From: a virus
Reading direction: 5' to 3' (one strand)
Virus record (IMG/VR): IMGVR_UViG_3300035180_001847
Span: 41,456 to 105,455 of that record
DNA: 64,000 nt
Part shown: piece after piece, positions 2,172-63,794 of the stretch
Layout: each line of letters begins with the position of its first letter
Position numbering within the stretch: the stretch's first letter is position 1
The notes under the pieces: model-generated
Seen by the model: the letters and a program-made list of their open reading frames with translations, nothing else
What the model was told of the DNA's origin: nothing
Databases searched by the model: none
Position numbers and translations under genes: made by a program

Positions 2172-4904
2172 TTGTCCCGAAAAATACAATCCTTTTATGT
2201 ATTAAAATTAGAAAGCGAAAAACTAAAAAAACACGGATATAAAATTAAAATAGATTTGAACGAGGCAAGAAAAAACAATGAAGTGGTATCATTGGCAAAT
2301 AGTCAAATGATACGGACGATACAAGAAGTTATAAAATCAAGTTATTCTCAGAAAAAATTAGATAGATTAGTAAAAAGAAAAAAAGCATTAGGAAATCAAA
2401 AAAATAAATCGATTTATCGAAAAGAATTGAGCGATATTCAAAATGAAATAGATAAGTTATTGTTTATTCCTGAATTGATAGTAATTCATTTTAATCATAC
2501 ATCACATTATAAAACAATTATTAAAAAGGGTCTTTTTATAAATGACAAAGAATATGTTAGATTAATGACGGGAGCGGGTCACGCTCGTCGTAATTCCAGT
2601 ATCTTCATTGAAAAAAATATTTGGATGAATGTCAATGAAATATTTGAAAATGGAAGAAACAAAAACGTTCCTCTAGTGTATAGCAAGTATAATGCCTATT
2701 ATGGACTTTATGCTTCGGCAACTCAACCCGTCTCATTTCCTCGTATAGCAGTTGTGCCAGACCTTGAATTGGAATTTATAAGAACATTTGATTTTGTTGA
2801 AGAAGTCGAACAGGAAGATGATTTGGTTTATGAAAAAATAATGCCCGTCAAGCAAAATATTTTTGATGGTATGGGATTGATAAGCATTGAATTTGCGAAA
2901 CAATGGCAGTCAGACCTTGAACTTGATTATCTTCCATCTGGATTTATATTTAGAGGGGGATTTTTCAAAGGAATGCTTGCAACATTTGATATAAAAATGT
3001 TTGCCAAAGAAAATAATTCTTTTGAAATAAAAGATGTTTGGGGAAATATTCATAATGTAAAAGATATTGATATTATTGCAACCCAATCACAATTCAAATT
3101 ATGGATGTGCTATAATTCAATTGATGACTACCGTGAAAACTGTGTAAAAAACAATATTGGATTTGGGGTAAGCAGAGTTTCTCCAAAAAAACAAAAAGAT
3201 TTTTTTTATTCATCATATCAATATTTACAGGTATTGAATGAAGATAAAGTCAATATTGAAAAATTATGTGAACCAACCTTAAATTATTTCAAAGATGTTT
3301 CTTCTGATGATGCTAATAAGGCAATTTTATATTTATTGGGCGATAAGGATTATCAAGATTTAGAAAAATTATTCGAGCAAATTGATAATAACGTGTTGAA
3401 AGCGCTCATGATAAATAAAAATGTCATAAAAGATAATCATATAAAAAACCATATTTTCAAGACTATTAATAAAAAGATACGAAATTCCTTCATGGGGAAT
3501 CTTATTCTTGATGGATGTTATCAAATGAATATTGCTGATCCTGTGGCTTTCATGCAACACGCTCTGGGTCTTTTGGTAACGGGATTGCTAAAAGATAAAG
3601 AATATTATTCTAAATACTGGTCATCAAGAAAAATAAATAAAATCGCAACGGGTAGAAGTCCTTTAACTTGGAGAAGTGAATTAAATGTCTTAAATCTTAT
3701 TGACAATAATGATACTGAGAAATGGTACAAATATTTGAGTGACGGGATTATAACCAATATTTATGGTGATGACAACTATCGTTGGGCGGATTCCGATATG
3801 GATGGTGATTTGATTTTTTCTACATCTAATGAATACTTGATAAATGGGGCATTTGGCGGAAATCCAATCACATATAATCGTGACTCTGGAAATAAGGATA
3901 TTATAAATACCGATGAATTATATAAAAGCGATATTGATAGTTATGGTTCGCGCATTGGTGTTTTAACCAATTATTCAACAACATCGTATTCAATGCTTTC
4001 CATGTTTGGTAACAAGGACAGTGAAGAATATAAAACCATTATAAATAGATTGAAAATAACAAGAAAAAATCAGGGTCAGGAAATTGATAAGGCGAAATTG
4101 GGCGGATTTATAAAACCAATTCCTGAATGGGCTAAGTATAGGCACATAAAAAATTCCATGACCGAAGAAGAAAAAAATAAAATTAGGCTTCACAATAGAC
4201 TTCTTCTTGATCGTCGTCCTTTGTGGATGATTTATCTTTATCCTCACAAAATGAATGAATTTCGTCGTTTCAATAAGATATATGAAAACTATGTTCAAAG
4301 TAAAATGGGATTTTCTCTGGAAACATTGTTGAATAAAAAAGATAGAAACAAGAAGGAAAACGACATTTATAATAGTTATGTAAGATATTCTCCATTTATT
4401 GTTGAAGATAAGTCTATTATGATGAAGATTTATCAATATATGATTCAATCTGTTCGTGAACATAAACTTAAGATGAAAAACGATTCATTGACATTTGATT
4501 ATACCATATATCTAAATAAATCCATCCCTAAAAACTCATATAAACTGCAACAGATGGAAAATTTACTAAAAGAATATAAGTCCGCTAAAAAGAATTTATC
4601 TGTTACCAATAATTTTGAAAACAAAGAACAAGTCTTTTCTATTTTGAGAAATAAGGCTGAATTTAATATAAGTAATAATATATCAGAATTAACAAATTTG
4701 GCTGTTGAGGTTTGTTATGAAAAAGGAACTGTAAATTCAAGGCAATTTGTTTTTGATCTGTTTGGCGATGGTATTATTCAGAATCTCTTGACAAATAATG
4801 GAAATAAGATTATGATACCAGTTCTTACTGAACCATCTGGAGATTTGGAATTTCTTGGAAAACACTATTCATTGAAAGAGGTTAAAATAAATAATGTCGT
4901 ATAA
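2172..4904 (+). CDS. yonO: YonO-like single-subunit DNA-dependent RNA polymerase (cellular RdRP-like double-psi barrel family)
   Basis: 910 aa; catalytic DxDGD (DSDMDGD), FDGMG, KGML and GRSP motifs; position before HU, phosphoesterase and terminase matches SPbeta yonO-yonN-yonJ-yonF. Confidence 0.88.
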   Translation: MSRKIQSFYVLKLESEKLKKHGYKIKIDLNEARKNNEVVSLANSQMIRTIQEVIKSSYSQKKLDRLVKRKKALGNQKNKSIYRKELSDIQNEIDKLLFIPELIVIHFNHTSHYKTIIKKGLFINDKEYVRLMTGAGHARRNSSIFIEKNIWMNVNEIFENGRNKNVPLVYSKYNAYYGLYASATQPVSFPRIAVVPDLELEFIRTFDFVEEVEQEDDLVYEKIMPVKQNIFDGMGLISIEFAKQWQSDLELDYLPSGFIFRGGFFKGMLATFDIKMFAKENNSFEIKDVWGNIHNVKDIDIIATQSQFKLWMCYNSIDDYRENCVKNNIGFGVSRVSPKKQKDFFYSSYQYLQVLNEDKVNIEKLCEPTLNYFKDVSSDDANKAILYLLGDKDYQDLEKLFEQIDNNVLKALMINKNVIKDNHIKNHIFKTINKKIRNSFMGNLILDGCYQMNIADPVAFMQHALGLLVTGLLKDKEYYSKYWSSRKINKIATGRSPLTWRSELNVLNLIDNNDTEKWYKYLSDGIITNIYGDDNYRWADSDMDGDLIFSTSNEYLINGAFGGNPITYNRDSGNKDIINTDELYKSDIDSYGSRIGVLTNYSTTSYSMLSMFGNKDSEEYKTIINRLKITRKNQGQEIDKAKLGGFIKPIPEWAKYRHIKNSMTEEEKNKIRLHNRLLLDRRPLWMIYLYPHKMNEFRRFNKIYENYVQSKMGFSLETLLNKKDRNKKENDIYNSYVRYSPFIVEDKSIMMKIYQYMIQSVREHKLKMKNDSLTFDYTIYLNKSIPKNSYKLQQMENLLKEYKSAKKNLSVTNNFENKEQVFSILRNKAEFNISNNISELTNLAVEVCYEKGTVNSRQFVFDLFGDGIIQNLLTNNGNKIMIPVLTEPSGDLEFLGKHYSLKEVKINNVV

Positions 4905-5171
4905 AATTTTGAATATTGATAATATGCAATATCAGACAGAAGAACAAGCGGATTTAATATTTTGCGATTTTGTGTATGAGGATTTAAATTTTCAATGGGT
5001 GGACAAATATTGGAGATTTTTAAAAGAGGGGGGAGTATGGGGAAGTAGAATGTGCGGGAGGCAATCTTGAATAATGTAAATTATGTTGGAATTGAATATG
5101 ATAAAGAACCGTTTGAATTAGCGCAAAAACGATTAAAAGAAGTTTATGAGAAGAAAAATACTAATTCTTAA
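4894..5171 (+). pseudogene. Internally deleted, frameshifted DNA methyltransferase remnant
   Basis: ATG at 4894 gives ...DLIFCDFVY...LKEGG; a second frame gives EAILNNVNYVGIEYDKEPFELAQKRL, a typical N4/N6 MTase C-terminus; the central region is missing. Confidence 0.6.
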
Positions 5172-5922
5172 TGAAATTACTCAAGCAGAAAAAATATTGA
5201 AGAATGGTTTCACCAATGGCATAATGTTTGGAGAATTAATGTTGTTGGCAAAATATTTTAAAGCATTGGGACTTAGACCAAAAAAAATTAAGGAAAAAAT
5301 TGTCGAGTTTTGTACAAAAGAAGATAAATTTTTTAATGTTGATGTTTATGATAAAATGATAGCGACAGCTATAAATAAGTCCAAAAATTATAAGATCAAA
5401 TCTGTTGAAGGCATAAATATCCCCATCTTTGAAGAAGAAATAGATGTCATAAAATTTTTACCTCACCGTTTATATAAAATATTGTTTGTAATGCTTGCTC
5501 TTTCCAAGTATCAGAAATTTTTTCATTCCAGGATAAAAAATAAGAAAAGAAAAAGAATGTCTTATTTTTTGAATTTTGTGGATTTTGAAGATATATGTAG
5601 AATGGCTGGATTAGGAAGCAAAAATATAACCAAAAAATTAATTTATAAAATTCGTTATGAATTGGATGGGAAGGGCGGATTTATATCGTCCAGCAAATTC
5701 TCAGAATCCAGTTATCAAATAATGTTTGCTAGGGATGAAGGTAAAATAATTTCTTTGGTGAGGGATTTAGAAAATATAATAGATTTTATTCCTTATTTTT
5801 GCGTGGATTGTAAAAAACAATTTGATAAAAAGGGTAAACGTGATAGATGTGATGACTGCTATTTAGAATATAGAAGGAAAATCAATAGAGAAAATATGAA
5901 ACGTTCCAGAAAAGAAGCATGA
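5146..5922 (+). CDS. Hypothetical phage protein with C-terminal CxxC...CxxC zinc site
   Basis: CVDC...RCDDC at the C-terminus; basic; adjacent to the RNAP gene. Confidence 0.7.
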   Translation: MRRKILILNEITQAEKILKNGFTNGIMFGELMLLAKYFKALGLRPKKIKEKIVEFCTKEDKFFNVDVYDKMIATAINKSKNYKIKSVEGINIPIFEEEIDVIKFLPHRLYKILFVMLALSKYQKFFHSRIKNKKRKRMSYFLNFVDFEDICRMAGLGSKNITKKLIYKIRYELDGKGGFISSSKFSESSYQIMFARDEGKIISLVRDLENIIDFIPYFCVDCKKQFDKKGKRDRCDDCYLEYRRKINRENMKRSRKEA

Positions 5923-5981
5923 AAATTTGTGTACAGATGTAATACTTATCTAATTAATGAAAGAGGATAAAATAAACAAAA

Positions 5982-6398
5982 ATGACCGGAAAACGAAGTA
6001 AACCAAAAAACGAAAATTTTCTTGATACTGACCAATTTGCACGAGAGCTTGCTCAAAGAGCAAAGTTCTCTTTAAGTGATACCAAAATATTCATGAAGGA
6101 ATATCAAGGTATATTCGAGGATTGTATTGAACAAAACATAGATATTGATTTAAGGGGTTTTGTACATTTATATATACAGACAATTCCGGCGCACGAGGGA
6201 AACAATGCAAGAGAATCGAGGCTTAGAGGCGGTGAGCCAGTTAAACAATGGTTTCCCGAATCAAAAAGAATTACAATTAAGGTTGCAAAAAACTTGACGG
6301 ATATTCTTCGGAGTCCTGAAAAGAAAAAAATTCAAAATTCCAAATCTACAAAAGATGCCTTACGTCAAATGACCTTGGATGAAAATATGGGTGGATAA
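5982..6398 (+). CDS. HU/IHF-like DNA-binding protein (YonN-like)
   Basis: FARELAQRA...IDLRGFV...PAHEGNN...PESKRITIKVAKNL follows the HU fold pattern; synteny with SPbeta. Confidence 0.75.
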   Translation: MTGKRSKPKNENFLDTDQFARELAQRAKFSLSDTKIFMKEYQGIFEDCIEQNIDIDLRGFVHLYIQTIPAHEGNNARESRLRGGEPVKQWFPESKRITIKVAKNLTDILRSPEKKKIQNSKSTKDALRQMTLDENMGG

Positions 6399-6410
6399 AG
6401 AGGTTGTTTT

Positions 6411-6851
6411 ATGAACTCATTAGCTGTCAAACCCGTTACAAATGAGATCGTTCAGGTGAAAACTCAAATAAGAAGATTTTGTTCTTGTTGCGGTGCATTT
6501 GTCAGAGGTGAAGATTATCATTGTACCATGCGACCTATTGAACTTAGATACATCATTGGCGCATCTATTTATGTGGAATGGCCTTATATTTGGAAAACAA
6601 ATGAATATGGTTCGGGGAATAGGTATAAATATTTTTTAAAGCCAATTAGAGTTATTTTGAAAAATGGTCAATTCTTTAGTTCCAGAGAAATTGTTGGTGA
6701 GAATGGTGGCAGCATATATATTGGAGCATTTCAGACTTTTGATGCCATTGAATTACATGAAAAAAATAAGGAATTATGGCCTACGGTTGAACAAGCCGAA
6801 AGAGCCGTTCATCATCCAGATGAAATTTTATATTCCAATTTTATGGGATGA
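6411..6851 (+). CDS. Hypothetical protein
   Basis: GAGG RBS; in-operon ORF. Confidence 0.6.
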   Translation: MNSLAVKPVTNEIVQVKTQIRRFCSCCGAFVRGEDYHCTMRPIELRYIIGASIYVEWPYIWKTNEYGSGNRYKYFLKPIRVILKNGQFFSSREIVGENGGSIYIGAFQTFDAIELHEKNKELWPTVEQAERAVHHPDEILYSNFMG

Positions 6852-8505: not shown

Positions 8506-8576
8506 GCGGATTTGGCAGAACGATCATGCACTTGCCTTCCAGGCAATGTAAGAGGGTTTGACTCCCTCAACCCGCT
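8506..8576 (+). tRNA. tRNA-Gly(TCC), somewhat degenerate
   Basis: Cloverleaf GCGGATT/AACCCGC; anticodon loop CT-TCC-AG; T arm GAGGG-TTTGACT-CCCTC; some mismatches; CTA instead of CCA. Confidence 0.75.
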
Positions 8577-10579: not shown

Positions 10580-10653
10580 GCTTTCATAGTTTAATTAGCA
10601 AAGCCATCCTTTGTAACGATGAGTTGGTGGTGCAATTCCACCTGAAAGCTCCA
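10580..10653 (+). tRNA. tRNA-Thr(TGT)
   Basis: GCTTTCA/TGAAAGC acceptor stem; anticodon loop TT-TGT-AA; encoded CCA; terminator follows. Confidence 0.8.
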
Positions 10654-24606: not shown

Positions 24607-25641
24607 ATGAAAAAATTTATGGTAAGCGTTGCTGATGTTAGAATGTACGACACCAGCAATGGAAATTTACTTGCTATCGGTAAAACATTGTTGGATAGCA
24701 ATGTGACTATGAAGGTGGCAAATACCGATATTCGTGGTGGACGCGGGGCGCAACTTCAAACAATTTATTTCCACTCACCGGATTTGAACTTTGTTGTAAC
24801 TGATACACAATGGAATTTGGATTTCTTATCGGCGACATTGGGAAGCGATATTGTTACTGGCTCTAATGTTTTCACAGAAGAAACAGTGACGTTGGGTGCC
24901 GCTGGGGTTGGAACGGTTTCGGGAACTCCTTTAGCAGTTGATAGTACAACTATTTATGGTTGGGTGACATTGCCAAATGGTGTGGTTGAAAAAGTTGTGT
25001 TTACTGGAAGTGACTTCACATCATCTTTGGGAACTGTTGGGGATGTTGTATGTATTCGTTATTATCATTTGAACAGTTCCGCTCGTTCAGTTACCATTAA
25101 TGCAGATGTTCTTCCAAAGAATGTTCGTTTGGAACTTGAAACGTTATTGGTTTCATCTGCTGCAACAACAAATAGAATTGGTGTTGTTCAGATTTCAGTG
25201 CCAAAGGCTCAATTAACTGGTAATTTTACTTTGACAATGAAATCAGATGGTGTTTCCACTACGCCTTTGGATTTGCGCGCTACTGCTGCCGATGATGCCC
25301 TAAGTGCTGCTTGTAACAATGTTCCTACTTATGCCAAATTGATAGAAATTCTTGATTCCGCGAATTGGTATGATAATTTGCTTGGTTTAAGTATTGAAGG
25401 TGGGGATTTTACTTTAGTTAATCCCGCCACAAAACAACTTTATGTTTACGCCATTCCTCAAAATGGTGCGCCATTCCTAGCACCCACAACGGATTTGACA
25501 TTCACATCTGGAACTGTGGGGACTGCAACAATTAGTTCAACGGGATTGGTTACCACCGTTGCGGCTGGAACTTCCTTGCTGCATGTCACCATAACTGCTG
25601 CACCTCAATATGATGCTTCTGTAACAGTAACTGTTTCGTAA
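24607..25641 (+). CDS. Major tail (tube) protein with C-terminal Ig-like domain
   Basis: DIRGGRG motif; Ig-like ATISSTGLVTTVAAGTS; hairpin downstream. Confidence 0.75.
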   Translation: MKKFMVSVADVRMYDTSNGNLLAIGKTLLDSNVTMKVANTDIRGGRGAQLQTIYFHSPDLNFVVTDTQWNLDFLSATLGSDIVTGSNVFTEETVTLGAAGVGTVSGTPLAVDSTTIYGWVTLPNGVVEKVVFTGSDFTSSLGTVGDVVCIRYYHLNSSARSVTINADVLPKNVRLELETLLVSSAATTNRIGVVQISVPKAQLTGNFTLTMKSDGVSTTPLDLRATAADDALSAACNNVPTYAKLIEILDSANWYDNLLGLSIEGGDFTLVNPATKQLYVYAIPQNGAPFLAPTTDLTFTSGTVGTATISSTGLVTTVAAGTSLLHVTITAAPQYDASVTVTVS

Positions 25642-28420: not shown

Positions 28421-29425
28421 ATGGCGAAAATTAAATCGATTGAAATAACAAATGAACAATGGCAATCCGTTAATCCACGCAACCGAAAAATAACGGATGA
28501 ATTTCTTCGAGAAAGTATGCAACTTTCAGACCAAACCTTGAAGCAATATTCTTCCGCTCTTCAAATTTATTTTTATTGGGTGAAAACGGAATGTGAAGAT
28601 AAGGATTTCGATAAACTTAAAAGTAAAGATTTTTTGATGTTTCAAAATTATCTAATAAGAAGGGGGCTGTCATCTTCTGCTATTAGACTTAAACGAGCGG
28701 CTGTTTCATCTTTGAATCAATATGTTGAGACATATTTTGAAGATTTGAATTTTAAAAATTATATAACTAAAAAAATTCCTGCGCCAGCAATGGTGTTTGT
28801 AAATGAAAAGAAGCCCCCCACTCTTGAAGAATATGAAATGATTTGTGCCAAGCTGGAAGAAATGCAGGAATGGCAAAAATTGGCTTATCTACGCTTTACA
28901 TTTACAACTGGATGCCGAAGGAGCGAATCGGTTCAGTTATTAAAAAGTATTGTTGATTCTGAAAAGAAAATTGTTGAAGTAAAAACAAAAGATGAGAACG
29001 GTAATCCCATAATTAAACAAGCGTCTTTTTATGTTACCAATCCCATACGATGTAAGGGCAGGGGAAAAGCTGGAAAGATTCGCACATTTCAGATGGATGA
29101 GGCGGCCATGCTTGCAATTAAAAAATGGTTGTCTGTTCGCGGAAATGATGATTGTGAATATGTTTTTGTTTCTAATATAAAAGGAAAAATAAAACAATTA
29201 AATCCAGCGACTTTAAATAAATGGTCGAAAGGATTGTTTACAGAGATTTTAGGAAGAAGATTTCACCCCCACATTTTAAGAGAAGCAAGGGCAACAAGTC
29301 TTGTCGTTGAAGGTGGGAAAGATATAAAAGTTGTTCAAAAATTATTAGGCCACAATAGTCCTCAAACTTCCGAAATTTATGTAATTAGAAATGATGAAGA
29401 TATGAGCGATGAGGCATTTACATAA
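28421..29425 (+). CDS. Tyrosine recombinase (YomM/XerD-like)
   Basis: N-terminal SAM-like domain; TGCRRSE, KG, HILR, LGH and Y catalytic set. Confidence 0.9.
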   Translation: MAKIKSIEITNEQWQSVNPRNRKITDEFLRESMQLSDQTLKQYSSALQIYFYWVKTECEDKDFDKLKSKDFLMFQNYLIRRGLSSSAIRLKRAAVSSLNQYVETYFEDLNFKNYITKKIPAPAMVFVNEKKPPTLEEYEMICAKLEEMQEWQKLAYLRFTFTTGCRRSESVQLLKSIVDSEKKIVEVKTKDENGNPIIKQASFYVTNPIRCKGRGKAGKIRTFQMDEAAMLAIKKWLSVRGNDDCEYVFVSNIKGKIKQLNPATLNKWSKGLFTEILGRRFHPHILREARATSLVVEGGKDIKVVQKLLGHNSPQTSEIYVIRNDEDMSDEAFT

Positions 29426-39010: not shown

Positions 39011-40606
39011 ATGACAACTACTACTCCAAATTTGGGGTTGACGTTATATGATTCTTCAACTGATACATCTGTGCTATTTTCAACCTTTCGGGCTGTTTGG
39101 GGCGGGACAGCACCGACATCAAATTTCTATAAAATAGATACCGCTTATGGGGTTCAAGCCTCTCAGATTGCAAATTTAATGAATACGCGAGGTGCAATTC
39201 CAGTTTCAGCATTATTTAGTTCTGCAAATTATTATGTTGCAAATGGGGTTTCAGACATTACAGCATACACGGCAGGAATGACAATTATCTTGAATGTTGA
39301 TACGACAAGTAACGGAACTGTAACACTGAACATAAATTCGCTTGGAATTATTTCTGTTATGAAGGTTGATTCAACTGGAACTCCAATAAATTTGACGGGT
39401 TCAGATTTAGTCAAAGGCAGACAATACTTAATGGTTTACGATGGAGCGAGATGGCTTTGGGTTTCCGCTAATTCTGCTGACCAAATTCAAATTGTTGGAA
39501 CATCTGGAAATGTTGTAACCGTTGGAGCTACTAATAATTTGGATGGTTCTTTAACACAATCATCACTTATATCCAATACATTACATGCCGCAATAGTTAA
39601 AACAACTTTGAATGATAATGATGAATTTGGTATATCAGATAGTGCCGCATCCAATATTCTTAAAAAAGCAACGTGGGCAAATATTAGGGCAACGCTCAAA
39701 ACATATTTAGACACCCTATATATGTCTTTGGTTGCCCCTGGTGCATCCGGCAACGTAATGACATCAAATGGCTCGGCGTGGGTATCATCTGTACCAAGTA
39801 AATTGCCATTCAATGGCACATACGGAGATGGCTCAGATGGTGACGCAACCATTTCCAGTACCGTTACGCTCACACGCGACATGTTTTATAACAATCTAAC
39901 TATTACTGGCTCTGGCGTGTTAATTCCCGCCGGATATATTATCTATGTGAGCGGCAACCTTACCATTCAGTCAGGTGGCATCATTGCCGCGAATGGCTCA
40001 AATGGCGCGATTGGTTCAGGTGGCAACGGTGGTGCAGGCGGTGCTGGGGCGGTTGGAACAACATTGCATTATCCAATAGCAACCAGTGGTAGCGCAGGTG
40101 GTAACAGCGGCGGCGTTGGAACGGTAAACGGCACAAGCGGCACATCTGGGGTATCACAAAACACTTCGACCCTTGCGCCCATATCGATGAGAGCGGGTGG
40201 TGGTGGCGGTGGTGGTGGCGGACATGGTTCATCTCCCACCAATGGCAGTAATTCAGCAGGCTCCTTATTCGGTGCAAGAGGTGGAAACGGCGGAGCTACA
40301 ACCAGCACAACAAACATTTCCTCTGCTGGTGGTGGTGGCGGCGGCGGTGGCGGAGTTATTGATGTGCGCGCATACATTATCGGTAACGCTGGTTCAATTC
40401 AGGCACTTGGCGGTAACGGTGGAGACGCGCAAGGCGGAGCCAACGGTGGTGGTGGCGGTGGTGGCGGTGGTGGTTGTATTTCTGTCATCTATCACTCAAC
40501 CACTGGAAACGGAATTGGAACTCTCAACGTCAACGGCGGCGCGGCTGGTGCTAGTGGTTCAGCTTCGGTGGGTGCTAATGGATATACAATGACAACGCAA
40601 ATTTAA
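39011..40606 (+). CDS. Tail fibre/receptor-binding protein with glycine-rich C-terminal domain
   Basis: TTPNLGL start; TLNINSLG; KKATWANIRATLKTYLDTLY linker; poly-Gly tracts. Confidence 0.8.
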   Translation: MTTTTPNLGLTLYDSSTDTSVLFSTFRAVWGGTAPTSNFYKIDTAYGVQASQIANLMNTRGAIPVSALFSSANYYVANGVSDITAYTAGMTIILNVDTTSNGTVTLNINSLGIISVMKVDSTGTPINLTGSDLVKGRQYLMVYDGARWLWVSANSADQIQIVGTSGNVVTVGATNNLDGSLTQSSLISNTLHAAIVKTTLNDNDEFGISDSAASNILKKATWANIRATLKTYLDTLYMSLVAPGASGNVMTSNGSAWVSSVPSKLPFNGTYGDGSDGDATISSTVTLTRDMFYNNLTITGSGVLIPAGYIIYVSGNLTIQSGGIIAANGSNGAIGSGGNGGAGGAGAVGTTLHYPIATSGSAGGNSGGVGTVNGTSGTSGVSQNTSTLAPISMRAGGGGGGGGGHGSSPTNGSNSAGSLFGARGGNGGATTSTTNISSAGGGGGGGGGVIDVRAYIIGNAGSIQALGGNGGDAQGGANGGGGGGGGGGCISVIYHSTTGNGIGTLNVNGGAAGASGSASVGANGYTMTTQI

Positions 40607-44965: not shown

Positions 44966-45580
44966 TTACTTGAATGGCTCAAGGATTGTTTCACCTTGAG
45001 AAATAACATACGGAATTTCTCTTGCTCCCCACTTCAACACAATATATGAAATAAAATCTTGAATAGTGGGGAATAAATCGACACTAACTTTATATGCCGT
45101 AATTAATCTTGCCACAGTGTTCCCCCCAATTTTTTCAAAAAACGTGGTTATAATTGCATAAAATGATCCATCGTCATCTTTACAAAGCCATAAATTTGTA
45201 CTAACTGGAGTATCATCCGCATTCTTAAAACCATAAGTGCGATAAGATTTCCATGTTCCATGATTGTCCAAACATCGAAAGGCAGCATTGGCTTCCGTAG
45301 AATGTCTAAGCCAAGCATGTCCATTAACAACTTGAATAATGCGAAGTTCTTGTGATGTTAAATTTGATGCAGTTTCATCAAGAACTGGCGACAAAGTTAA
45401 AGTCCCGCCATATTGCAAAACAAATTTTCCCAAATCTTCTGATTGTTGAATAGGAGACAATACGGTAAAATTTACACCAGAAAAAAACAAAACAGAAATT
45501 ATAATTGAAAACAATAGAATGGCAATCATTGCAAATTTAATTACACCCATACCGCTTGTTGGAATATTCATTGTGGTCAT
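44966..45580 (-). CDS. Membrane-anchored hypothetical protein
   Basis: N-terminal TM helix; HAWLRH...LITAY in the soluble domain; GAGGAG RBS. Confidence 0.65.
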   Translation of the reverse strand: MTTMNIPTSGMGVIKFAMIAILLFSIIISVLFFSGVNFTVLSPIQQSEDLGKFVLQYGGTLTLSPVLDETASNLTSQELRIIQVVNGHAWLRHSTEANAAFRCLDNHGTWKSYRTYGFKNADDTPVSTNLWLCKDDDGSFYAIITTFFEKIGGNTVARLITAYKVSVDLFPTIQDFISYIVLKWGAREIPYVISQGETILEPFK

Positions 45581-45620
45581 AAAATATAATCTCCTCTTTA
45601 TTATAATTTTATTTTTTGTT

Positions 45621-45836
45621 TTATAGAGTTCTGAAAATCAATTGGCGAAGGTTTTCATTATTTGCATCGGGCGAGTTTATAATCATTTGAAATGATAGCT
45701 TTTCCCCAATTGTGCAATCAAAATCTGGTTCGTGAATTCGCACATATTCCATAACATGAAGCGGAATGTTCAAGCGTAAAATCCAGCATCCAATCATAAT
45801 TGCATACATAAATTTGTTGAGTGTGAGTGATGACAT
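45621..45836 (-). CDS. Hypothetical protein
   Basis: AAGGAG RBS and own promoter. Confidence 0.6.
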   Translation of the reverse strand: MSSLTLNKFMYAIMIGCWILRLNIPLHVMEYVRIHEPDFDCTIGEKLSFQMIINSPDANNENLRQLIFRTL

Positions 45837-45865
45837 TTTATCTCCTTTTTTATTTGATGCTTATC

Positions 45866-45894
45866 ATTATACAGGATGATGATTGATTTGTCAA
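45866..45894 (-). promoter_or_regulatory. Sigma70-type promoter
   Basis: TTGACA-N17-TATAAT. Confidence 0.8.
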
Positions 45895-46129
45895 GATGTA
45901 AAATTACATTTTTATCAATAATTTTTACTATCATGTCACAATATTCGTCTTCTAATTGAGTGCATGACAAAACACATGACAAAAAATTAAAAAGACATGC
46001 ACACGTCAAATAATAACGTGCGCATGCACTCAAATAAGTAAGAAATGTCATCACAAGAACAATGAAATCGAGGATGATTAACCAGAACACAAAATACAAT
46101 CAACAACTACACCAACGTCGAAACCTAAA

Positions 46130-46171
46130 CTCGCCCAACCGATAGCCAGTTGGCCGCACGCTTTGTTAGTC
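46130..46171 (-). mobile_element. attC-like left arm (R'' GACTAAC), apparently truncated
   Basis: Minus strand GACTAAC-AAAGCGTGC contains the stop codon of ORF 46166-46360; complementary to GTTAGTC at the 5' end of the same cassette. Confidence 0.55.
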
Positions 46172-46360
46172 ACCGCTCATGCTGTCAAACACATTCAATA
46201 GTGTTTCATCAAACGTGCCAACACCTCTCATTTCTTCGAGGCGTACGGCGCATTGAAAGAAATCATTTTCTTTGAGACAATCTTTGGCAGATGTCAACAA
46301 TGTTTCGATAACCTTGATGCGTCGCTGCAACTCTTGTTTGCAAACATCTTCTGTTTTCAT
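46166..46360 (-). CDS. Hypothetical protein, gene-cassette-like
   Basis: AAGGAG RBS right after an R' box; stop codon inside R''. Confidence 0.65.
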   Translation of the reverse strand: MKTEDVCKQELQRRIKVIETLLTSAKDCLKENDFFQCAVRLEEMRGVGTFDETLLNVFDSMSGD

Positions 46361-46384
46361 AATTCTCCTTTTAGCAAGATGGGG

Positions 46385-46509
46385 GACTAACGGCTTGCGT
46401 CAGTTGCGGGGCGATTTGCAAAGCCCGCAAGTATCAAAATTTACACTGCAAAAGGAATTACATTTTTTGCAGCACCAGTAATCCCCATCAACTGCGCGCC
46501 TTGTTAAGT
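46385..46509 (-). mobile_element. attC site (best preserved, 125 bp)
   Basis: ACTTAAC-AAG-GCGC-G-CAGTTG-A-TGGGG...CCCCG-CAACTG-ACGC-AAGCC-GTTAGTC: R''/R' boxes, unpaired spacer, L-box stem with extrahelical bases. Confidence 0.75.
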
Positions 46510-46648
46510 GCGCCAAAGTTTCGCCAAGTTCCTTATAAAGCAACCCTGCTTCTTCTCGCGTAAGTATATAATCTTTCATACCCTCAAGGGGACGAAGGCA
46601 AACAAGATCGGAAACACCTTTATACGTTGAAATCATTTTGTTTTGCAT
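46400..46648 (-). CDS. Hypothetical protein whose C-terminal RanBP2-like zinc finger is encoded inside the attC
   Basis: AGGAG RBS; ...AHLTRRAVDGDYWCCKKCNSFCSVNFDTCGLCKSPRN. Confidence 0.6.
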   Translation of the reverse strand: MQNKMISTYKGVSDLVCLRPLEGMKDYILTREEAGLLYKELGETLAHLTRRAVDGDYWCCKKCNSFCSVNFDTCGLCKSPRN

Positions 46649-46719
46649 AGTAGCTCCTAACTATGTTTTGAGCGGTGAAATCACCGCCTAAATACCCAAA
46701 TTAATCTTAATTATCTTCA

Positions 46720-46932
46720 TTAGCCAATCGTATGAACGGCTTGCTCTGGATAGAACTTGACTTCACCACCCCAAGCATACCAAAGATCAGTTACGTGTTC
46801 AACGATTTCAGACGCTTTATTCTCAAGTTCATCAGGAATAACGAGAGTTGGATTATCGCCGTCCCACCTGATTATTGCGCCTTCATACTCTTTTGCAAGA
46901 GCCTTTTCAAGAAGTGCCTTCCAGTTTTTCAT
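46720..46932 (-). CDS. Hypothetical protein, gene-cassette-like
   Basis: AAGGAG RBS immediately after R' GTTGGGC. Confidence 0.65.
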   Translation of the reverse strand: MKNWKALLEKALAKEYEGAIIRWDGDNPTLVIPDELENKASEIVEHVTDLWYAWGGEVKFYPEQAVHTIG

Positions 46933-46952
46933 GAGTCTCCTTTTCCTAGATT

Positions 46953-47084
46953 GCCCAACAGACTTGCGTTAATGGTTTTGTCGCTCATAGTTCGCGCAAA
47001 TTAAATGAATGCATTGTTCGCAGGGTTCGCCATAGACATATTGTTTGGTATCGGTGGCGAAATCCCCTGCGTGCTTTGTTAAGT
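46953..47084 (-). mobile_element. attC-like site (132 bp, partly degenerate)
   Basis: ACTTAAC-AAAGCACGCAGG...CCATTAACGCAAGTCT-GTTGGGC followed by RBS+ATG. Confidence 0.65.
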
Positions 47085-47217
47085 GTACTTTATGTTGATT
47101 ATGAGCGTCTCTGACACCGAACGCCCAGCATCGAAAGCCACAAATTGAGCAGGTGTAATATTTTGTCTTTTTACCGCGATGGGTAATTTCAAATTTAGCA
47201 CGATGATGTTTTTTCAT
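46969..47217 (-). CDS. Hypothetical protein with C2H2-like zinc finger, reading through the attC
   Basis: C-x2-C-x12-H-x5-H (CSIC...HNQHKVH), then the attC-encoded LTKHAGDF...CEQC tail. Confidence 0.55.
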   Translation of the reverse strand: MKKHHRAKFEITHRGKKTKYYTCSICGFRCWAFGVRDAHNQHKVHLTKHAGDFATDTKQYVYGEPCEQCIHLICANYERQNH

Positions 47218-47340
47218 ATTTATTCACTTCTGTTCCTTTTGGTTTCAAACTAAATCACCCGCAATTTTCATTACACCCAATCTTATTTTTTGGCAAACGT
47301 TTTCTTTTTCAAGTGGCAAAAATTGAAATTGAAAGCGACA

Positions 47341-47541
47341 TCAAACATCTTTTTCCGGAACTGATTCTACATCGCCATACTTCTCTAGAAGTGGCTCAAC
47401 CTCATCATAAAGTGAATAACCCTTTTTGAGTAATTCAACAGCATTATGTAATTGGCCTTTTGCAATCATTGCTCCAAGTTCCCCATTGTGTTGAATATTG
47501 TAGTCTGCGTTTTCCAACGCTTCCAAAATTAATGCCGCCAT
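47341..47541 (-). CDS. Hypothetical protein
   Basis: AAGGAG RBS. Confidence 0.6.
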   Translation of the reverse strand: MAALILEALENADYNIQHNGELGAMIAKGQLHNAVELLKKGYSLYDEVEPLLEKYGDVESVPEKDV

Positions 47542-47607
47542 TATCTCTCCTTTATATATTAAAAATTATTGATATTGTTAATTTCACGAAACATTTACGT
47601 TCAACTA

Positions 47608-47745
47608 TCATGTAGTGCCCAATGCGATAGTGAAAAAAAATGCAGACAAAAATAACCATGCAGCAGATTCATATTCATCATAATACAACGCAATACCAGC
47701 CATTATTAATTGAATTACAACAAGAATCAAGAGGATAATCTTCAT
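47608..47745 (-). CDS. Small 2-TM membrane protein
   Basis: Likely start MKIILL after AAGGTG; hydrophobic. Confidence 0.5.
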   Translation of the reverse strand: MKIILLILVVIQLIMAGIALYYDEYESAAWLFLSAFFFTIALGTT

Positions 47746-47764
47746 TTTTTCACCTTTCTTTTTT

Positions 47765-47793
47765 ATTATATAGCAAACGATCCATTTTGTCAA
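47765..47793 (-). promoter_or_regulatory. Sigma70-type promoter upstream of the cassette-like cluster
   Basis: TTGACA-N17-TATAAT. Confidence 0.8.
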
Positions 47794-47971
47794 TAGGCAA
47801 TTTATGAAATTGAATTATTTGTTCTATTTTTCAAATCCTTTTAAGGTATCTTACAATATCTCACCATTTATTTATCATACTTGTTGTCATCACGTTATCC
47901 ATTCAAGTATTTCAAATAATTGTTTATAAGCATCTTCATTTATGTGTGCATAATAAACATGATTTTTAAAT

Positions 47972-50230
47972 TTAATTTTTGAAACCTTTCAACCATGTAT
48001 TTCTAATTGTGGCATCTTCCCTCAAACATTTATCAAATGCGTATGGTTCAGCCAGAATCAAACATCTTTGTTTAGAGCGAGTCATTGCCGTATAAATTAA
48101 CTGGGAATTCAATAACATAAAATGCGAGTTATCAAGAACGATAATCACATCTCTATATTCTGAACCTTGAGATTTGTGGACTGATATTGCATAGGCAAGT
48201 TGTATTTCATTAATGTTTTCATGGTTATATTCAATATATTTATCTGAAAGATTATAATAAACTTTTACTCCATTCCCATCAACAAAAGTAATCACTCCAG
48301 TTTCTCCATTGAACACGTTGAGGTCATAATCATTCTTGGTGTGAATAACTTTATCATTTAACCAAAATTCGTTTTTCCCATGAACAAATTTAACTGAACT
48401 ATTATGAAAATTTATTTCTTTTTGAATCGCTAAATTGAAATTTCTTGTTGAATTTAACGTATCACTTTTTCTTGGAACTAACAATACCACATTATCTAAA
48501 CCGAAATCAGACACGGATTTTAGATATGTCTTTATAGCAATATTGAATAAATCTTCTCTTTCATTTTTAAAAATATAATAAAGGTCTTTATTATTTCCAT
48601 GAACGATTTTTGGTTCTTTCTTTTCAATGGGGTTTATTCCATTTCTAATTTTATTGGAATCTAGAATGATGCCAGAATTTTTTGCTTGTCTTTGAATTTC
48701 AGTTAATTCAAATCTCGTAAATGGCATATCTATTTCATATAGATCGGAAAAAACATTTCCTTCACCAATGGGAGGAAGCTGACCCCTATCACCCATCAAG
48801 ATTACCTTTGTTTTAGTGGTATCAATTGCCTCAAATAATTTTTTAAATAAAAATGAATTTATCATTGATGACTCATCAACGAGAACTATGGAAAAATCAA
48901 GTTTATTTCTTTCTCCATATATAAATCCAGATTTTCCCTGCGCTCCAAGTAATCTATGAATTGTCATTGCATCAAATCCAGTTACGGATTGAATCCTCAT
49001 GGCCGCAACGGCGGATAAAGAACAAACACCAATTTTATATCCCATATTTCTATATATAGAAAGAACTCCTCTGGCAATGCTTGTTTTTCCAGTTCCACTT
49101 AATCCAGTAATACTGGAAAAATTATTCATGGTTATTTTCTCAATCACATTTTTTTGCTCATCGGTATACGAAAAACCAAGCTCCTTCTCCGCCATTTTAA
49201 TGCCCGTATTTATCGCATCATCACTTACTTCGAGGGGAATTGAATTATGAATAGATAAAATGGCGTCGTAAATATATTTTTCATAGTCATAAAATTTTTT
49301 AAGAGAAATTTTATCGTTTTCTATATGTAGAAATTTCGGATTATTTTTTTCTCCATCCATAAAATTTTCTAAAAGTTCATCTGTTTCAGGAATATTGTTA
49401 TTCACTTCTTTTTTTAAATCATAAATAGTAACCCAAGTATCACCATCTTGAGAACGTTGTTCCAAATAATACTTGATGAAAGAAACCAGTCTTGTTTCAG
49501 AATTTCTTAAATTGGGATTTAGTTGATTGGCAATCTTGTCCGCTGTTTTAAATGTTATTCCATCTGCTTCGGTAATAATATACGGATTTCTTAAAATCTT
49601 TTCTCGAAGAATTTTGGGATTAGTTTCATAGTCTAATAGTTTTTTGATTTTGGAAAAAGAAATTCCAAGAGGTGTAAGCAAAATTAATATATCAGATAAA
49701 GCAAAATTACTTACAATCTTTTCTTTAATTTTATCCCATGTAGTCTGTCCAACCCCCTTAATTAAATCTAAATCAACATTATCTTTACCAGAAATAATGT
49801 CATCGACAATATTTGGATAGTTTTCCAGAATGGATTGAGCCTGATTATTTGTGACTAAAGAACGCAAATATAATTCCTGTTCATCCCTTGTCTTTGGCTG
49901 AACCAATTCAACCGATTTAATTGTATATTGATAACCCCTTATTTTTTTTACATATTCAGGGATGCCAACAATATTATAAATATCTCCTATCGATGGTTCT
50001 GGCATCTTTCCGGCAATTGAAACGATATAAGATGATGACTCATTATTTGTTTCAATGTCGTAATCCAACTGCAATTTGGAATGCGGTATTTCATTTTTAG
50101 TTGAAACAACCAGAGCGCCCCAAGAACTATTTGGGTCATAATATCTAATGGACTTGATTATTGCAGTAAATGTCAATGGTTGTTTTTCTTTATTTGTATC
50201 GATGTTTTCCATTATTGGTTTCCTTTTCAT
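47972..50230 (-). CDS. recD2: RecD2-like SF1B helicase
   Basis: NPY, F.TADKIA, GLSGTGKT, TIHRLL, DESSM, GDRGQLPPIG, AYAISVHKSQGSE, YTAMTR. Confidence 0.92.
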   Translation of the reverse strand: MKRKPIMENIDTNKEKQPLTFTAIIKSIRYYDPNSSWGALVVSTKNEIPHSKLQLDYDIETNNESSSYIVSIAGKMPEPSIGDIYNIVGIPEYVKKIRGYQYTIKSVELVQPKTRDEQELYLRSLVTNNQAQSILENYPNIVDDIISGKDNVDLDLIKGVGQTTWDKIKEKIVSNFALSDILILLTPLGISFSKIKKLLDYETNPKILREKILRNPYIITEADGITFKTADKIANQLNPNLRNSETRLVSFIKYYLEQRSQDGDTWVTIYDLKKEVNNNIPETDELLENFMDGEKNNPKFLHIENDKISLKKFYDYEKYIYDAILSIHNSIPLEVSDDAINTGIKMAEKELGFSYTDEQKNVIEKITMNNFSSITGLSGTGKTSIARGVLSIYRNMGYKIGVCSLSAVAAMRIQSVTGFDAMTIHRLLGAQGKSGFIYGERNKLDFSIVLVDESSMINSFLFKKLFEAIDTTKTKVILMGDRGQLPPIGEGNVFSDLYEIDMPFTRFELTEIQRQAKNSGIILDSNKIRNGINPIEKKEPKIVHGNNKDLYYIFKNEREDLFNIAIKTYLKSVSDFGLDNVVLLVPRKSDTLNSTRNFNLAIQKEINFHNSSVKFVHGKNEFWLNDKVIHTKNDYDLNVFNGETGVITFVDGNGVKVYYNLSDKYIEYNHENINEIQLAYAISVHKSQGSEYRDVIIVLDNSHFMLLNSQLIYTAMTRSKQRCLILAEPYAFDKCLREDATIRNTWLKGFKN

Positions 50231-60946: not shown

Positions 60947-61153
60947 ATTTTCTCCTATTTTTTTGTTTTGTAAATATTTTTATTTATTTAGTTTTGCTTT
61001 TATAATTATATATATCTTTCATGTGTTTGTTTTGAACTATGAGTATTTGTTTTTATTTTAAGAAAATATGCCGCCTGATTTTAACGAAGTATTTTAAAAG
61101 CGGAATAATAATCTTTCAGCCTCCTTGTTTATGGTCGTGAATAATCGCACTAG

Positions 61154-61224
61154 CAGGATATGAAAGTGTCGAACTTCCATCTTTAGGGTCAAAGCCTAAT
61201 GTAATACCGTTATACCAATATCCC
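61154..61224 (-). tRNA. tRNA-Gln(TTG)
   Basis: GGGATAT/ATATCCT acceptor; TTAGG-CT-TTG-AC-CCTAA; GGAAG-TTCGACA-CTTTC. Confidence 0.85.
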
Positions 61225-61339
61225 ATGAATAAACCATGATTGAATTGAATAATACTTTTATTGATTTTGAATCAACCACACTTCTAATAAAAAAATTGCT
61301 TATGTTGCAGTCTGGAAAAACAAGTGCAATAATCCTGAG

Positions 61340-61411
61340 CGTCCTTATCCAGAATCGAACTGGAATCGTGATGTTAGAAGCATCGTATGTTTTCCATTAC
61401 ACTATAAGGAC
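61340..61411 (-). tRNA. tRNA-Arg(TCT)
   Basis: GTCCTTA/TAAGGAC; loop CT-TCT-AA; TCCAG-TTCGATT-CTGGA. Confidence 0.88.
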
Positions 61412-63368: not shown

Positions 63369-63706
63369 GAGGCAAGAGTTTATAAAAGAAACATTTTATG
63401 GCTACTTTTTCCTATGGCTTACTATTGTATCATCGCCACAGTTTCATTCCTGAAACACTCAATCGAATACAAATTTCACTATTTATCAATCAATTCATCT
63501 CTATTCATAGAGCCTTTTACCACCACAATACTTACATTAGTGACATACCATCATTTTTATAATGAGATTACTCGCCACCCCGAATGCCCTTCTCAAAAGC
63601 CCCAAATAGCATGTAATCTCATTATTTTTAGAAGCAATAAGATAAAAATCTTGATAATATGATAATATAAATAGAAGATATTTTTATCTATTTATTGCTT
63701 CTTAGG

Positions 63707-63794
63707 TTATCCGAGAAGGAGTCGAACATCCATAAACCTTGTGAGGGCATCCACGTTATAAGCATGGGGCTCTAACCAGTTGAGCTATCGGATA
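63707..63794 (-). tRNA. tRNA-Ile(TAT) with long variable arm (88 nt)
   Basis: TATCCGA/TCGGATA; GCTC/GAGC D stem; CCATG-CT-TAT-AA-CGTGG; 19-nt variable region containing CCT-CACA-AGG; TTCGA loop. Confidence 0.8.

Follow-up and report, generated by a model that had tools for sequence, protein, structure and literature searches.

We analyzed a 64,000-nt window (bases 41456-105455) of the 105,455-bp IMG/VR virus genome IMGVR_UViG_3300035180_001847, in which a minus-strand early transcription unit carries four small genes associated with attC sites, the recombination sites of integron gene cassettes. The genome has 127-bp direct terminal repeats and encodes the large terminase, portal, 1419-aa (amino acid) tape measure and minor tail proteins of a tailed phage. 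Its replication block, comprising a DnaE-type polymerase, RecD2, RecJ, a primase, DnaB and a deoxynucleoside monophosphate kinase, has its nearest relatives in large phages of Bacillota at 30-38% identity. The public sequencing runs that contain the stretch are sediment and microbial-mat metagenomes, and a near-identity DNA search with positions 45000-49000 in the INPHARED phage collection gave no match. We ruled out an assembly chimera on the basis of phage DNA on both sides of the cassette clusters, the terminal repeats, and junctions that recur in another IMG/VR record (L011) and in contigs of four metagenome runs.

The unit runs from a promoter at 47793 through open reading frames (ORFs) A and B and then through ORFs C, D, E and F to a terminator at 46027 (Table 1). 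GC content is 0.40-0.447 over 46000-47200 compared with 0.27-0.33 in the flanks and about 31% in the phage backbone as a whole. All four of the GC-richer minus-strand ORFs that had been described in the original prediction, made from the sequence before this analysis, are present, and each of them (C to F) has a strong AAGGAG-type ribosome-binding site. None of the six small ORFs (A-F) matched Pfam. The same prediction had likened the promoter of the unit to Pc, the promoter that reads into integron cassettes. The promoter itself is a perfect consensus; the comparison is only loosely apt. Because a second, identical consensus promoter stands at 45894-45866, the next feature after the terminator, and because the promoter of the unit is separated from the first cassette by about 500 nt and two intervening ORFs, it is an ordinary phage early promoter rather than a dedicated Pc.

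Three attC sites lie within the unit. Site 2 is complete and, read in the direction of the genes, consists of R'' ACTTAAC, a 5-nt spacer (AAGGC), L'' GCGCAGTTG, an 80-nt centre, L' CAACTG(A)CGC, a second 5-nt spacer (AAGCC) and R' GTTAGTC. Its plus (bottom) strand, whose folding had been proposed as a check, folds with both the R and the L boxes paired; the L helix spans 9 bp and contains a bulged A, and the 5x5 spacers are unpaired. Site 1 has an internal perfect hairpin and about 60 nt of extra 3′ sequence, and carries a 9-nt insertion at 47010 in L011 and in runs X2 and X4; we class it as moderate to weak, and as a composite or partly decayed attC. In the collapsed site 3, R'' GACTAAC (46171-46165) is followed by a spacer, the start of L'' and a possible R' GTTGGGC (46139-46133). 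Thus the R''/R' core is found in sites 1 and 2 and, with an R' that is only possible, in site 3; the palindrome, L boxes, spacers and extrahelical base are complete in site 2 and partial in the other two. ORFs C, E and F each adjoin or overlap one of these sites, and the sole such structure behind ORF D is a 47-nt hairpin element that may be a collapsed attC. As predicted, the two ends of cassette F are exact reverse complements (GTTAGTC at 46391-46385 and the GACTAAC of its own R''), and no other cassette in the window has this property: the match is 5/7 for cassette E and 4/7 for cassette D. An inverted orientation of the sites, with the gene strand as the bottom strand, was raised by the position of the bulged A in the 3′ arm; the GTT-side breakpoints described below favour the canonical orientation, and the end-complementarity rule cannot separate the two.

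Table 1. Features of the cassette array and of the rest of the phage genome. Positions are those of the window unless marked as genome positions; R1 and R2 are the covariance models described in the text, and E is the expectation value.
Feature	Position	Strand	Remarks
Consensus sigma-70 promoter	47765-47793	minus	TTGACA-N17-TATAAT, 12/12 match
ORF A, 45 aa	47608-47745	minus	hydrophobic, AT-rich backbone gene; 71% identical in L011; no attC adjoining
ORF B, 66 aa	47341-47541	minus	AT-rich backbone gene; 95% identical in L011; no attC adjoining
Cassette gene C	46969-47217	minus	about 45 aa C2H2-zinc-finger-like, then frame crosses its own attC to a TAA in L'
attC site 1	46953-47084	minus	R'' ACTTAAC to R' GTTGGGC; R2 21.8 bits, E 3.6e-4 at 46948-47089
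Cassette gene D, 70 aa	46720-46932	minus	no known family, no Pfam match; 15 metagenomic homologues, 51-100% identity
47-nt AT-rich hairpin element	46659-46705	minus	ends in GTT (46661-46659); 6-bp hairpin, z about -3
Cassette gene E	46400-46648	minus	about 48 aa gene plus 34-aa Cys-rich tail from attC 2; stop is TGA in L'
attC site 2, complete, 125 nt	46385-46509	minus	R2 51.9 bits, E 1.1e-12 at 46380-46514; R1 75 bits
Cassette gene F, 64 aa	46166-46360	minus	helical, function unassigned; counterpart cassette in complete integron L110
attC site 3, collapsed, about 39 nt	46133-46171	minus	R2 16 bits, E 0.015 at 46128-46176
Terminator-like hairpin	45995-46027	minus	14 pairs then T run; closes the unit
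attC of second window cluster	278-420	plus	R2 36.9 bits, E 1.9e-8
Second attC of plus-strand cluster	961-1056	plus	after DNA methyltransferase gene 436-987 (phrog_799); R2 31 bits, E 9e-7
Xer/phage-integrase-type tyrosine recombinase	28421-29425	plus	TIGR02249 36.6 bits
Second Xer/phage-integrase-like tyrosine recombinase	genome 7474-8310 (L002:1462-2298)	minus	
tRNA genes	8506-8576, 10580-10653, 61153-61224, 61339-61411, 63705-63794		

The same family of sites is found in bacteria next to genes for the integron integrase, IntI. We scanned one genome per prokaryote species with a strict two-part motif taken from the phage consensus and obtained 37 loci against about 4 expected (our estimate from the information content of the motif). 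Most of these are in metagenome-assembled genomes (MAGs) of Chloroflexota (Anaerolineales, Chloroflexia), with a few in other phyla and in two archaeal MAGs; Chloroflexi are known to carry integrons. In the 216 kb that these loci comprise, a phage-trained model (R1) detected 109 sites, arranged in same-strand tandem arrays with a spacing of 0.3-1.2 kb. An IntI above the TIGR02249 cut-off (430-470 bits vs 265) was present in four of the five array genomes tested and in none of 14 control genomes, and in contig L033 the intI gene (1229-2170, minus) directly adjoins the array (2468-6833, plus). We then built a second covariance model (R2) from 39 sites, restricting these to arrays whose genome or contig has an IntI gene (TIGR02249 411-470 bits). 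In these training sites 84.5% of positions are paired compared with 21-40% when the pairing is slid, and the distal L pairs covary. Additionally, the R' of one site is the exact complement of the R'' of the next in 27 of 32 neighbouring pairs, which none of 5000 shuffles reached, while R' and R'' within a single site are exact complements in only 4 of 39 sites. This relation between R' and the next R'' is the classic trace of circular cassettes. Applied to the whole phage genome, R2 matched all three window-array sites that the original prediction had listed and about 11 more (the two plus-strand sites in Table 1 and about nine in the first 31 kb).

These arrays bear directly on whether the phage sites are recombination sites at all, since RNA or DNA structures between genes (terminators, processing sites, or the promoter-stem-loop elements that take part in shuffling in T4-type phages) might merely resemble attC. 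The phage sites are transcribed, lie between early genes, contain hairpins and have stop codons at conserved positions (TAA in R'', TGA or TAA in L'), as such structures could. However, the family stands beside IntI genes in both bacteria and archaea and there follows the end-complementarity rule; no promoter lies inside the sites, and an Rfam scan of the window returned only tRNAs. As an account of where the sites come from, mere structural resemblance is already refuted by the IntI-linked arrays, and we give it next to no chance.

Two cassettes are shared between the phage and an integrase-bearing array. Among 5.8 billion proteins ORF F has only three homologues, one of which (92% identity in protein, 89% in DNA) is encoded on metagenome contigs L109-L111 with 50-53% GC. 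One of these contigs, L110, has an IntI gene (2691-3671; 411 bits) with at least 10 attC sites downstream of it, and the homologue of ORF F (6001-6189) is a cassette between two of them; the search for these cassettes in integron arrays, suggested together with the original prediction, thus found cassette F in a complete integron. There the cassette has a full attC of 117 nt in contrast to the collapsed site 3 of the phage. Its ends are G↓TTAGTC and GACTAAC in the phage and G↓CTAGAC and GTCTAAC in L110 (6/7 complementary), where the arrow marks the boundary. The variable position has changed at both ends of the cassette, so complementarity has been maintained. The cassette that comes first behind intI in L110 also has a phage counterpart (genome 24019-23683), with 90% identity between the two; the similarity starts exactly at GTTAG, and the sequences upstream of that point are unrelated. 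Judged from their sequences, the sites and cassettes are demonstrably of integron origin. L110 also offers some observations of its own: the intI gene and the cassettes of this complete integron lie on the same strand (L110:2691-4298), and its first cassette carries a TTGACA-N17-TATAAT promoter that the phage copy has retained.

Searches for further relatives of the locus were less productive. A tblastn comparison of the six ORFs with all retrieved array loci matched only the phage itself and L011, a search for viral contigs related to the loci of ORFs E and F found none, and neither did a search for metagenome contigs related to the helicase locus.

Comparison with close relatives shows how the array changes. 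Over positions 52000 to 46659 the window and L011 share 95% identity; this stops right after the GTT at 46661-46659, the end of the 47-nt element. Beyond this point the window continues with cassettes E and F, and L011 continues with at least three other small attC cassettes. The L011 cassettes follow the end-complementarity rule (GTTGGTT/AACTAAC and GTTAGCC/GGCTAAC), and one of them is also present at a locus near 18 kb of the genome studied here. A second copy of the 47-nt element is found at that locus (genome 18101-18149) together with the first ten codons of cassette E.

We also aligned Logan contigs of the four runs to the stretch, not counting as evidence the parts left uncovered in X3 and X4. 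Loose ends of contigs cluster at 46656-46659, where the contigs of X2-X4 continue in at least five different ways; one of these is the L011 type, on a contig that also spans ORF D. A further cluster at 46696-46705 marks the other edge of the 47-nt element, and the depth of the bin that holds this element is 2-8x that of its neighbours in all runs. In run X3 upstream sequence of the 18-kb type is joined to an intact cassette E, and in run X4 a different gene precedes attC 2. These data show that cassettes have been exchanged at GTT among natural variants, even if not every contig can be assigned to this locus. The cassette-precise changes at GTT that had been anticipated for relatives were therefore found in L011 and in at least five metagenome variants, although some rearrangements, described below, are not at GTT. 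Contigs of runs X2 and X4 link position 46403 with 46492; in them the centre of attC 2 is missing or replaced and both of its arms are retained.

The studied array is one of several in the genome. The 5′ half-motif of the sites occurs 12 times on the gene-sense (minus) strand and once on the other strand of the 105-kb genome, compared with two occurrences per strand for a reversed control pattern, which is far above chance. With looser patterns we found complete, half or collapsed sites at about 1.2-2.2, 16-18, 21-25.6, 29.4-30.2 and 41.7-42.5 kb in addition to the studied locus. In total, we count about 14 strong sites as well as several that have collapsed, spread over about six loci and both strands, and the sites are always co-oriented with their genes, the plus-strand pair included. 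An alignment of 13 phage sites supports two helices, R of 5 bp and L of 9 bp, the latter with a single bulged A. RNAalifold returned no consensus structure for these 13 sites; the structure was placed by hand and verified by pair counts, with 78% of cells paired compared with 21-40% after sliding and with compensatory changes in L. The other clusters carry DNA methyltransferase genes and a HEPN gene. A cassette for a small membrane protein is duplicated at genome 22105-22451 and 23114-23460, with ORFs about 97% identical and different neighbours, and the attC upstream of it belongs to a three-copy subfamily whose third copy is at 25014-25101.

No IntI is encoded in the window, as originally noted, or anywhere else in the 105-kb genome, where the best TIGR02249 scores are 36.6 and 41.6 bits against a cut-off of 265. 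The two proteins with these scores are Xer-like tyrosine recombinases, neither of them an IntI; aligned with the IntI of L110 they have only generic motifs in common, and the one encoded in the window shares only the C-terminal catalytic motif. That a genome with direct terminal repeats, in which no lysogeny module is obvious, encodes two such recombinases, one of them immediately ahead of the tape-measure gene, invites the idea that one of the two acts on the folded sites, with no need of a host IntI. XerCD is able to act on folded single-stranded DNA of the CTX phage. However, apart from the low scores and the lack of IntI-specific similarity, neither recombinase gene adjoins an attC cluster, and three of five other large viral records with arrays of the same attC family encode no tyrosine recombinase at all. 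We consider recombination of the sites by the phage's own enzymes highly improbable. The intI, attI and Pc that would adjoin the array in a complete integron are all lacking; three attC sites within 1 kb in a genome that encodes no IntI make the array a cluster of attC sites lacking an integron integrase (CALIN).

The occurrence of the same attC family next to IntI genes, the cassette shared with a complete integron and the turnover directly after GTT all support the reading of a CALIN carried by a phage. We consider it quite likely that 46133-47217 is an integrase-less array of four integron cassettes in a phage early unit, one of about six such clusters in the genome, and that its cassettes are inserted and excised in trans by an IntI of the host. 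The cassettes would originate from an environmental pool whose attC family mainly adjoins IntI genes in Chloroflexota (Anaerolineae-type) and in some other genomes. Each of them would comprise a small promoterless gene with its own ribosome-binding site followed by an attC, and would be transcribed within the phage early mRNA. During phage replication in cells with an expressed integron integrase, the attC sites of the phage, single-stranded and folded, could be recombined in trans. Circular cassettes would enter at the G↓TT within a resident attC, or else at a secondary site of the GWT type, and could be excised again, and the outcome would be close relatives of the phage with different cassettes at common docking points. 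We infer that replicating phage DNA is recombined in trans by a host IntI, which would be the most economical choice of catalyst. The cargo would presumably benefit the phage, probably through host take-over or counter-defence.

Several observations weigh against this reading. The phage has no IntI of its own. The replication module (about 37% identity) has an affinity with phages of Bacillota, whereas no complete integrons have been found in Bacillota, or Firmicutes (PMC4889954), which makes the identity of the host an interesting question. Sites 1 and 3 are weak or decayed, and the 47-nt element at which the swaps occur is detected by neither R1 nor R2. Exact end complementarity is seen in one of the three testable neighbour pairs of the window and in about four of eight genome-wide, compared with 27 of 32 in integrons. 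At the 18-kb locus, codon 10 of cassette E is fused to the leader of the next cassette, a deletion that is not at GTT, and in other variants genes have been swapped at R'' with the attC retained, again not at GTT. In addition, the loose ends of the metagenome contigs may partly stem from other loci or organisms that share the repeat, and the training sites of R2 had first been gathered with the phage-trained R1, such that the reverse test is not fully independent.

Collapsed sites, the off-GTT deletion and the swaps at R'' show that decay and general recombination are at work. They are among the points in favour of a different history, in which the cassettes are fossil passengers: illegitimate or homologous recombination would have brought them in from an integron or CALIN of the host, they would now be shuffled only by general phage recombination between conserved attC ends, and no integrase would use their sites any longer. 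A 90-nt repeat across a junction, the many half or composite sites, the complementarity below that of real integrons and the lack of an IntI in cis all fit such passengers as well. What they do not readily explain are the breakpoints right after GTT in L011, in at least five metagenome variants and in the comparison with L110, the single cassettes or short arrays at six separate loci, and the full attC geometry of site 2 and about 10 other phage sites, which score 30-68 bits with R2. We therefore regard fossil passengers as unlikely and prefer an array that is still exchanged by a host integrase.

The attC sites also affect the proteins encoded in the array. ORFs C and E run past R'', with TTAACAARGCG translated as LTK/RRA and stops provided by the TAA or TGA in L'. 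Relatives of ORF C share either residues 1-52 followed by other tails or the tail alone, with the switch at HLT(K/R)RA, which corresponds to R''/L''. Similarly, in the alignment of ORF E, protein P0005 shares only the N-terminal part and proteins P0006 and P0007 share only the tail. Because relatives of the two ORFs share the gene part (residues 1 to 45-50) or the tail separately, the Cys-rich tails belong to the attC and not to the gene. The Cys codons of the tails, which form CxxC pairs, derive from TGC/GCA palindromes. We considered a functional zinc finger in these tails and set it aside, since they travel with the attC and their function is unproven. Database proteins P0005-P0007, P0027 and P0033 are gene/attC chimeras, P0005 being the gene of cassette E with another tail. 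Caution is therefore needed with predicted proteins of this kind, as gene callers turn attC sites into Cys-rich C-terminal tails.

Arrays of this kind are, as stated beforehand, rarely described in phages: a screen of 10,705 phage genomes yielded 17 CALINs with 2-4 attC sites each (Qi, Rajabal, Ghaly, Tetu, Gillings 2023, PMC9892861). The same study counted 16 attC sites in a single Vibrio prophage, which holds part of a chromosomal integron, and showed that phage attC sites, those of phages other than the present one, can be recombined by IntI1 (PMC9892861). The kind of element is therefore already published, and the present phage is a much richer case with direct links to integrase-bearing arrays. 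Like the CALINs of virulent phages such as Tetrasphaera phage TJE1, Pseudoalteromonas phage PH101 and Polaribacter phage P12002L (PMC9892861), it combines attC clusters, small co-oriented genes and DNA methyltransferase cargo with the absence of an IntI, and for those phages, too, recombination in trans by bacterial IntI was proposed. Unlike them, with their 2-4 predicted sites at one locus, it has about 14 strong sites distributed among about six loci and over both strands. Also unlike them, it has a Chloroflexota-type attC family, two cassettes in common with a complete integron, and replacement of cassettes between near-identical phages, all of which is known here from sequence alone.

Bacterial sedentary chromosomal arrays and CALINs (Cury et al. 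2016, PMC4889954) resemble the phage arrays in their tandem, co-oriented attC sites of one family, their small, promoterless, unassigned genes and the complementarity of R'(n-1) and R''(n). The phage arrays differ from these (PMC4889954) in lacking intI, attI and Pc and in being short, dispersed, partly decayed, set within early operons of the phage and driven by phage promoters. IntI also inserts cassettes at genomic GWT sites outside integrons, where they are expressed from neighbouring promoters, as in the attG insertions and isolated cassettes (SALINs) of Loot et al. (preprint, 10.1101/2022.09.11.507474). Insertion at GWT offers a possible route by which, by analogy, a first cassette may have entered phage DNA. 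That work (10.1101/2022.09.11.507474) concerns bacterial chromosomes, whereas the element here is in a phage genome whose original insertion sites cannot be reconstructed.

Early genes of phages are also shuffled by other means. The PeSL (promoter early stem-loop) cassettes of T4-type phages, reportedly described by Arbiol and colleagues in 2010, are said to combine an early promoter with a stem-loop and to work by homologous recombination. They are likewise repeated structured elements that flank small early genes and allow modular shuffling in hyperplastic regions; the elements of the present phage differ in having no promoter and in being attC sites of an integron family.

Integrons tend to be regarded as devices of bacteria, and the phage CALINs reported so far are small and few in number. 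A virulent-type 105-kb phage that is tied to integrase-linked arrays by shared cassettes, and whose natural variants differ by cassette replacement at a fixed GTT, makes gene traffic between phages and integrons testable, and the sites described here supply a concrete attC family for Chloroflexota-type integrons. Among the questions raised are which integrase acts on replicating phage DNA, whether the cassettes have an anti-defence role and how many environmental viral contigs carry arrays. Some indication on the last point comes from IMG/VR, where 49 contigs (loci L052-L100, 40-56% GC) match the attC motif and contain arrays that account for 182 model hits; either viruses with CALINs are far more numerous, or integron arrays have been wrongly filed as viral. 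Of the five large array records that we examined, four are rated 100% complete, one (67.7 kb) encodes an IntI and the three mentioned above have no tyrosine recombinase. The 49 contigs and the five large records hint, very tentatively, at tailed phages of sediments and mats being a regular and overlooked compartment of the cassette pool. The lineage studied here might keep several docks ready for expression in its early operons and trade cassettes there with Chloroflexota-type integrons and between its own loci, either by a host IntI in trans or by an IntI-free route. We think this broader picture possible and rather doubtful; if true, what the phage maintains would amount to an integron with no integrase, serving as a store of genes for counter-defence and host take-over.

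Two further observations concern the rest of the window. It contains four or five tRNA genes (Thr, Gln, Arg-UCU, Ile-UAU and one Rfam-only call). Additionally, a 531-aa ORF after the tail genes (39011-40606), which has no Pfam or PHROG match, has a 3′ end (40000-40600) with 56-57% GC compared with 31% for the genome, and this part of the gene could be an acquired receptor-binding or fibre domain.

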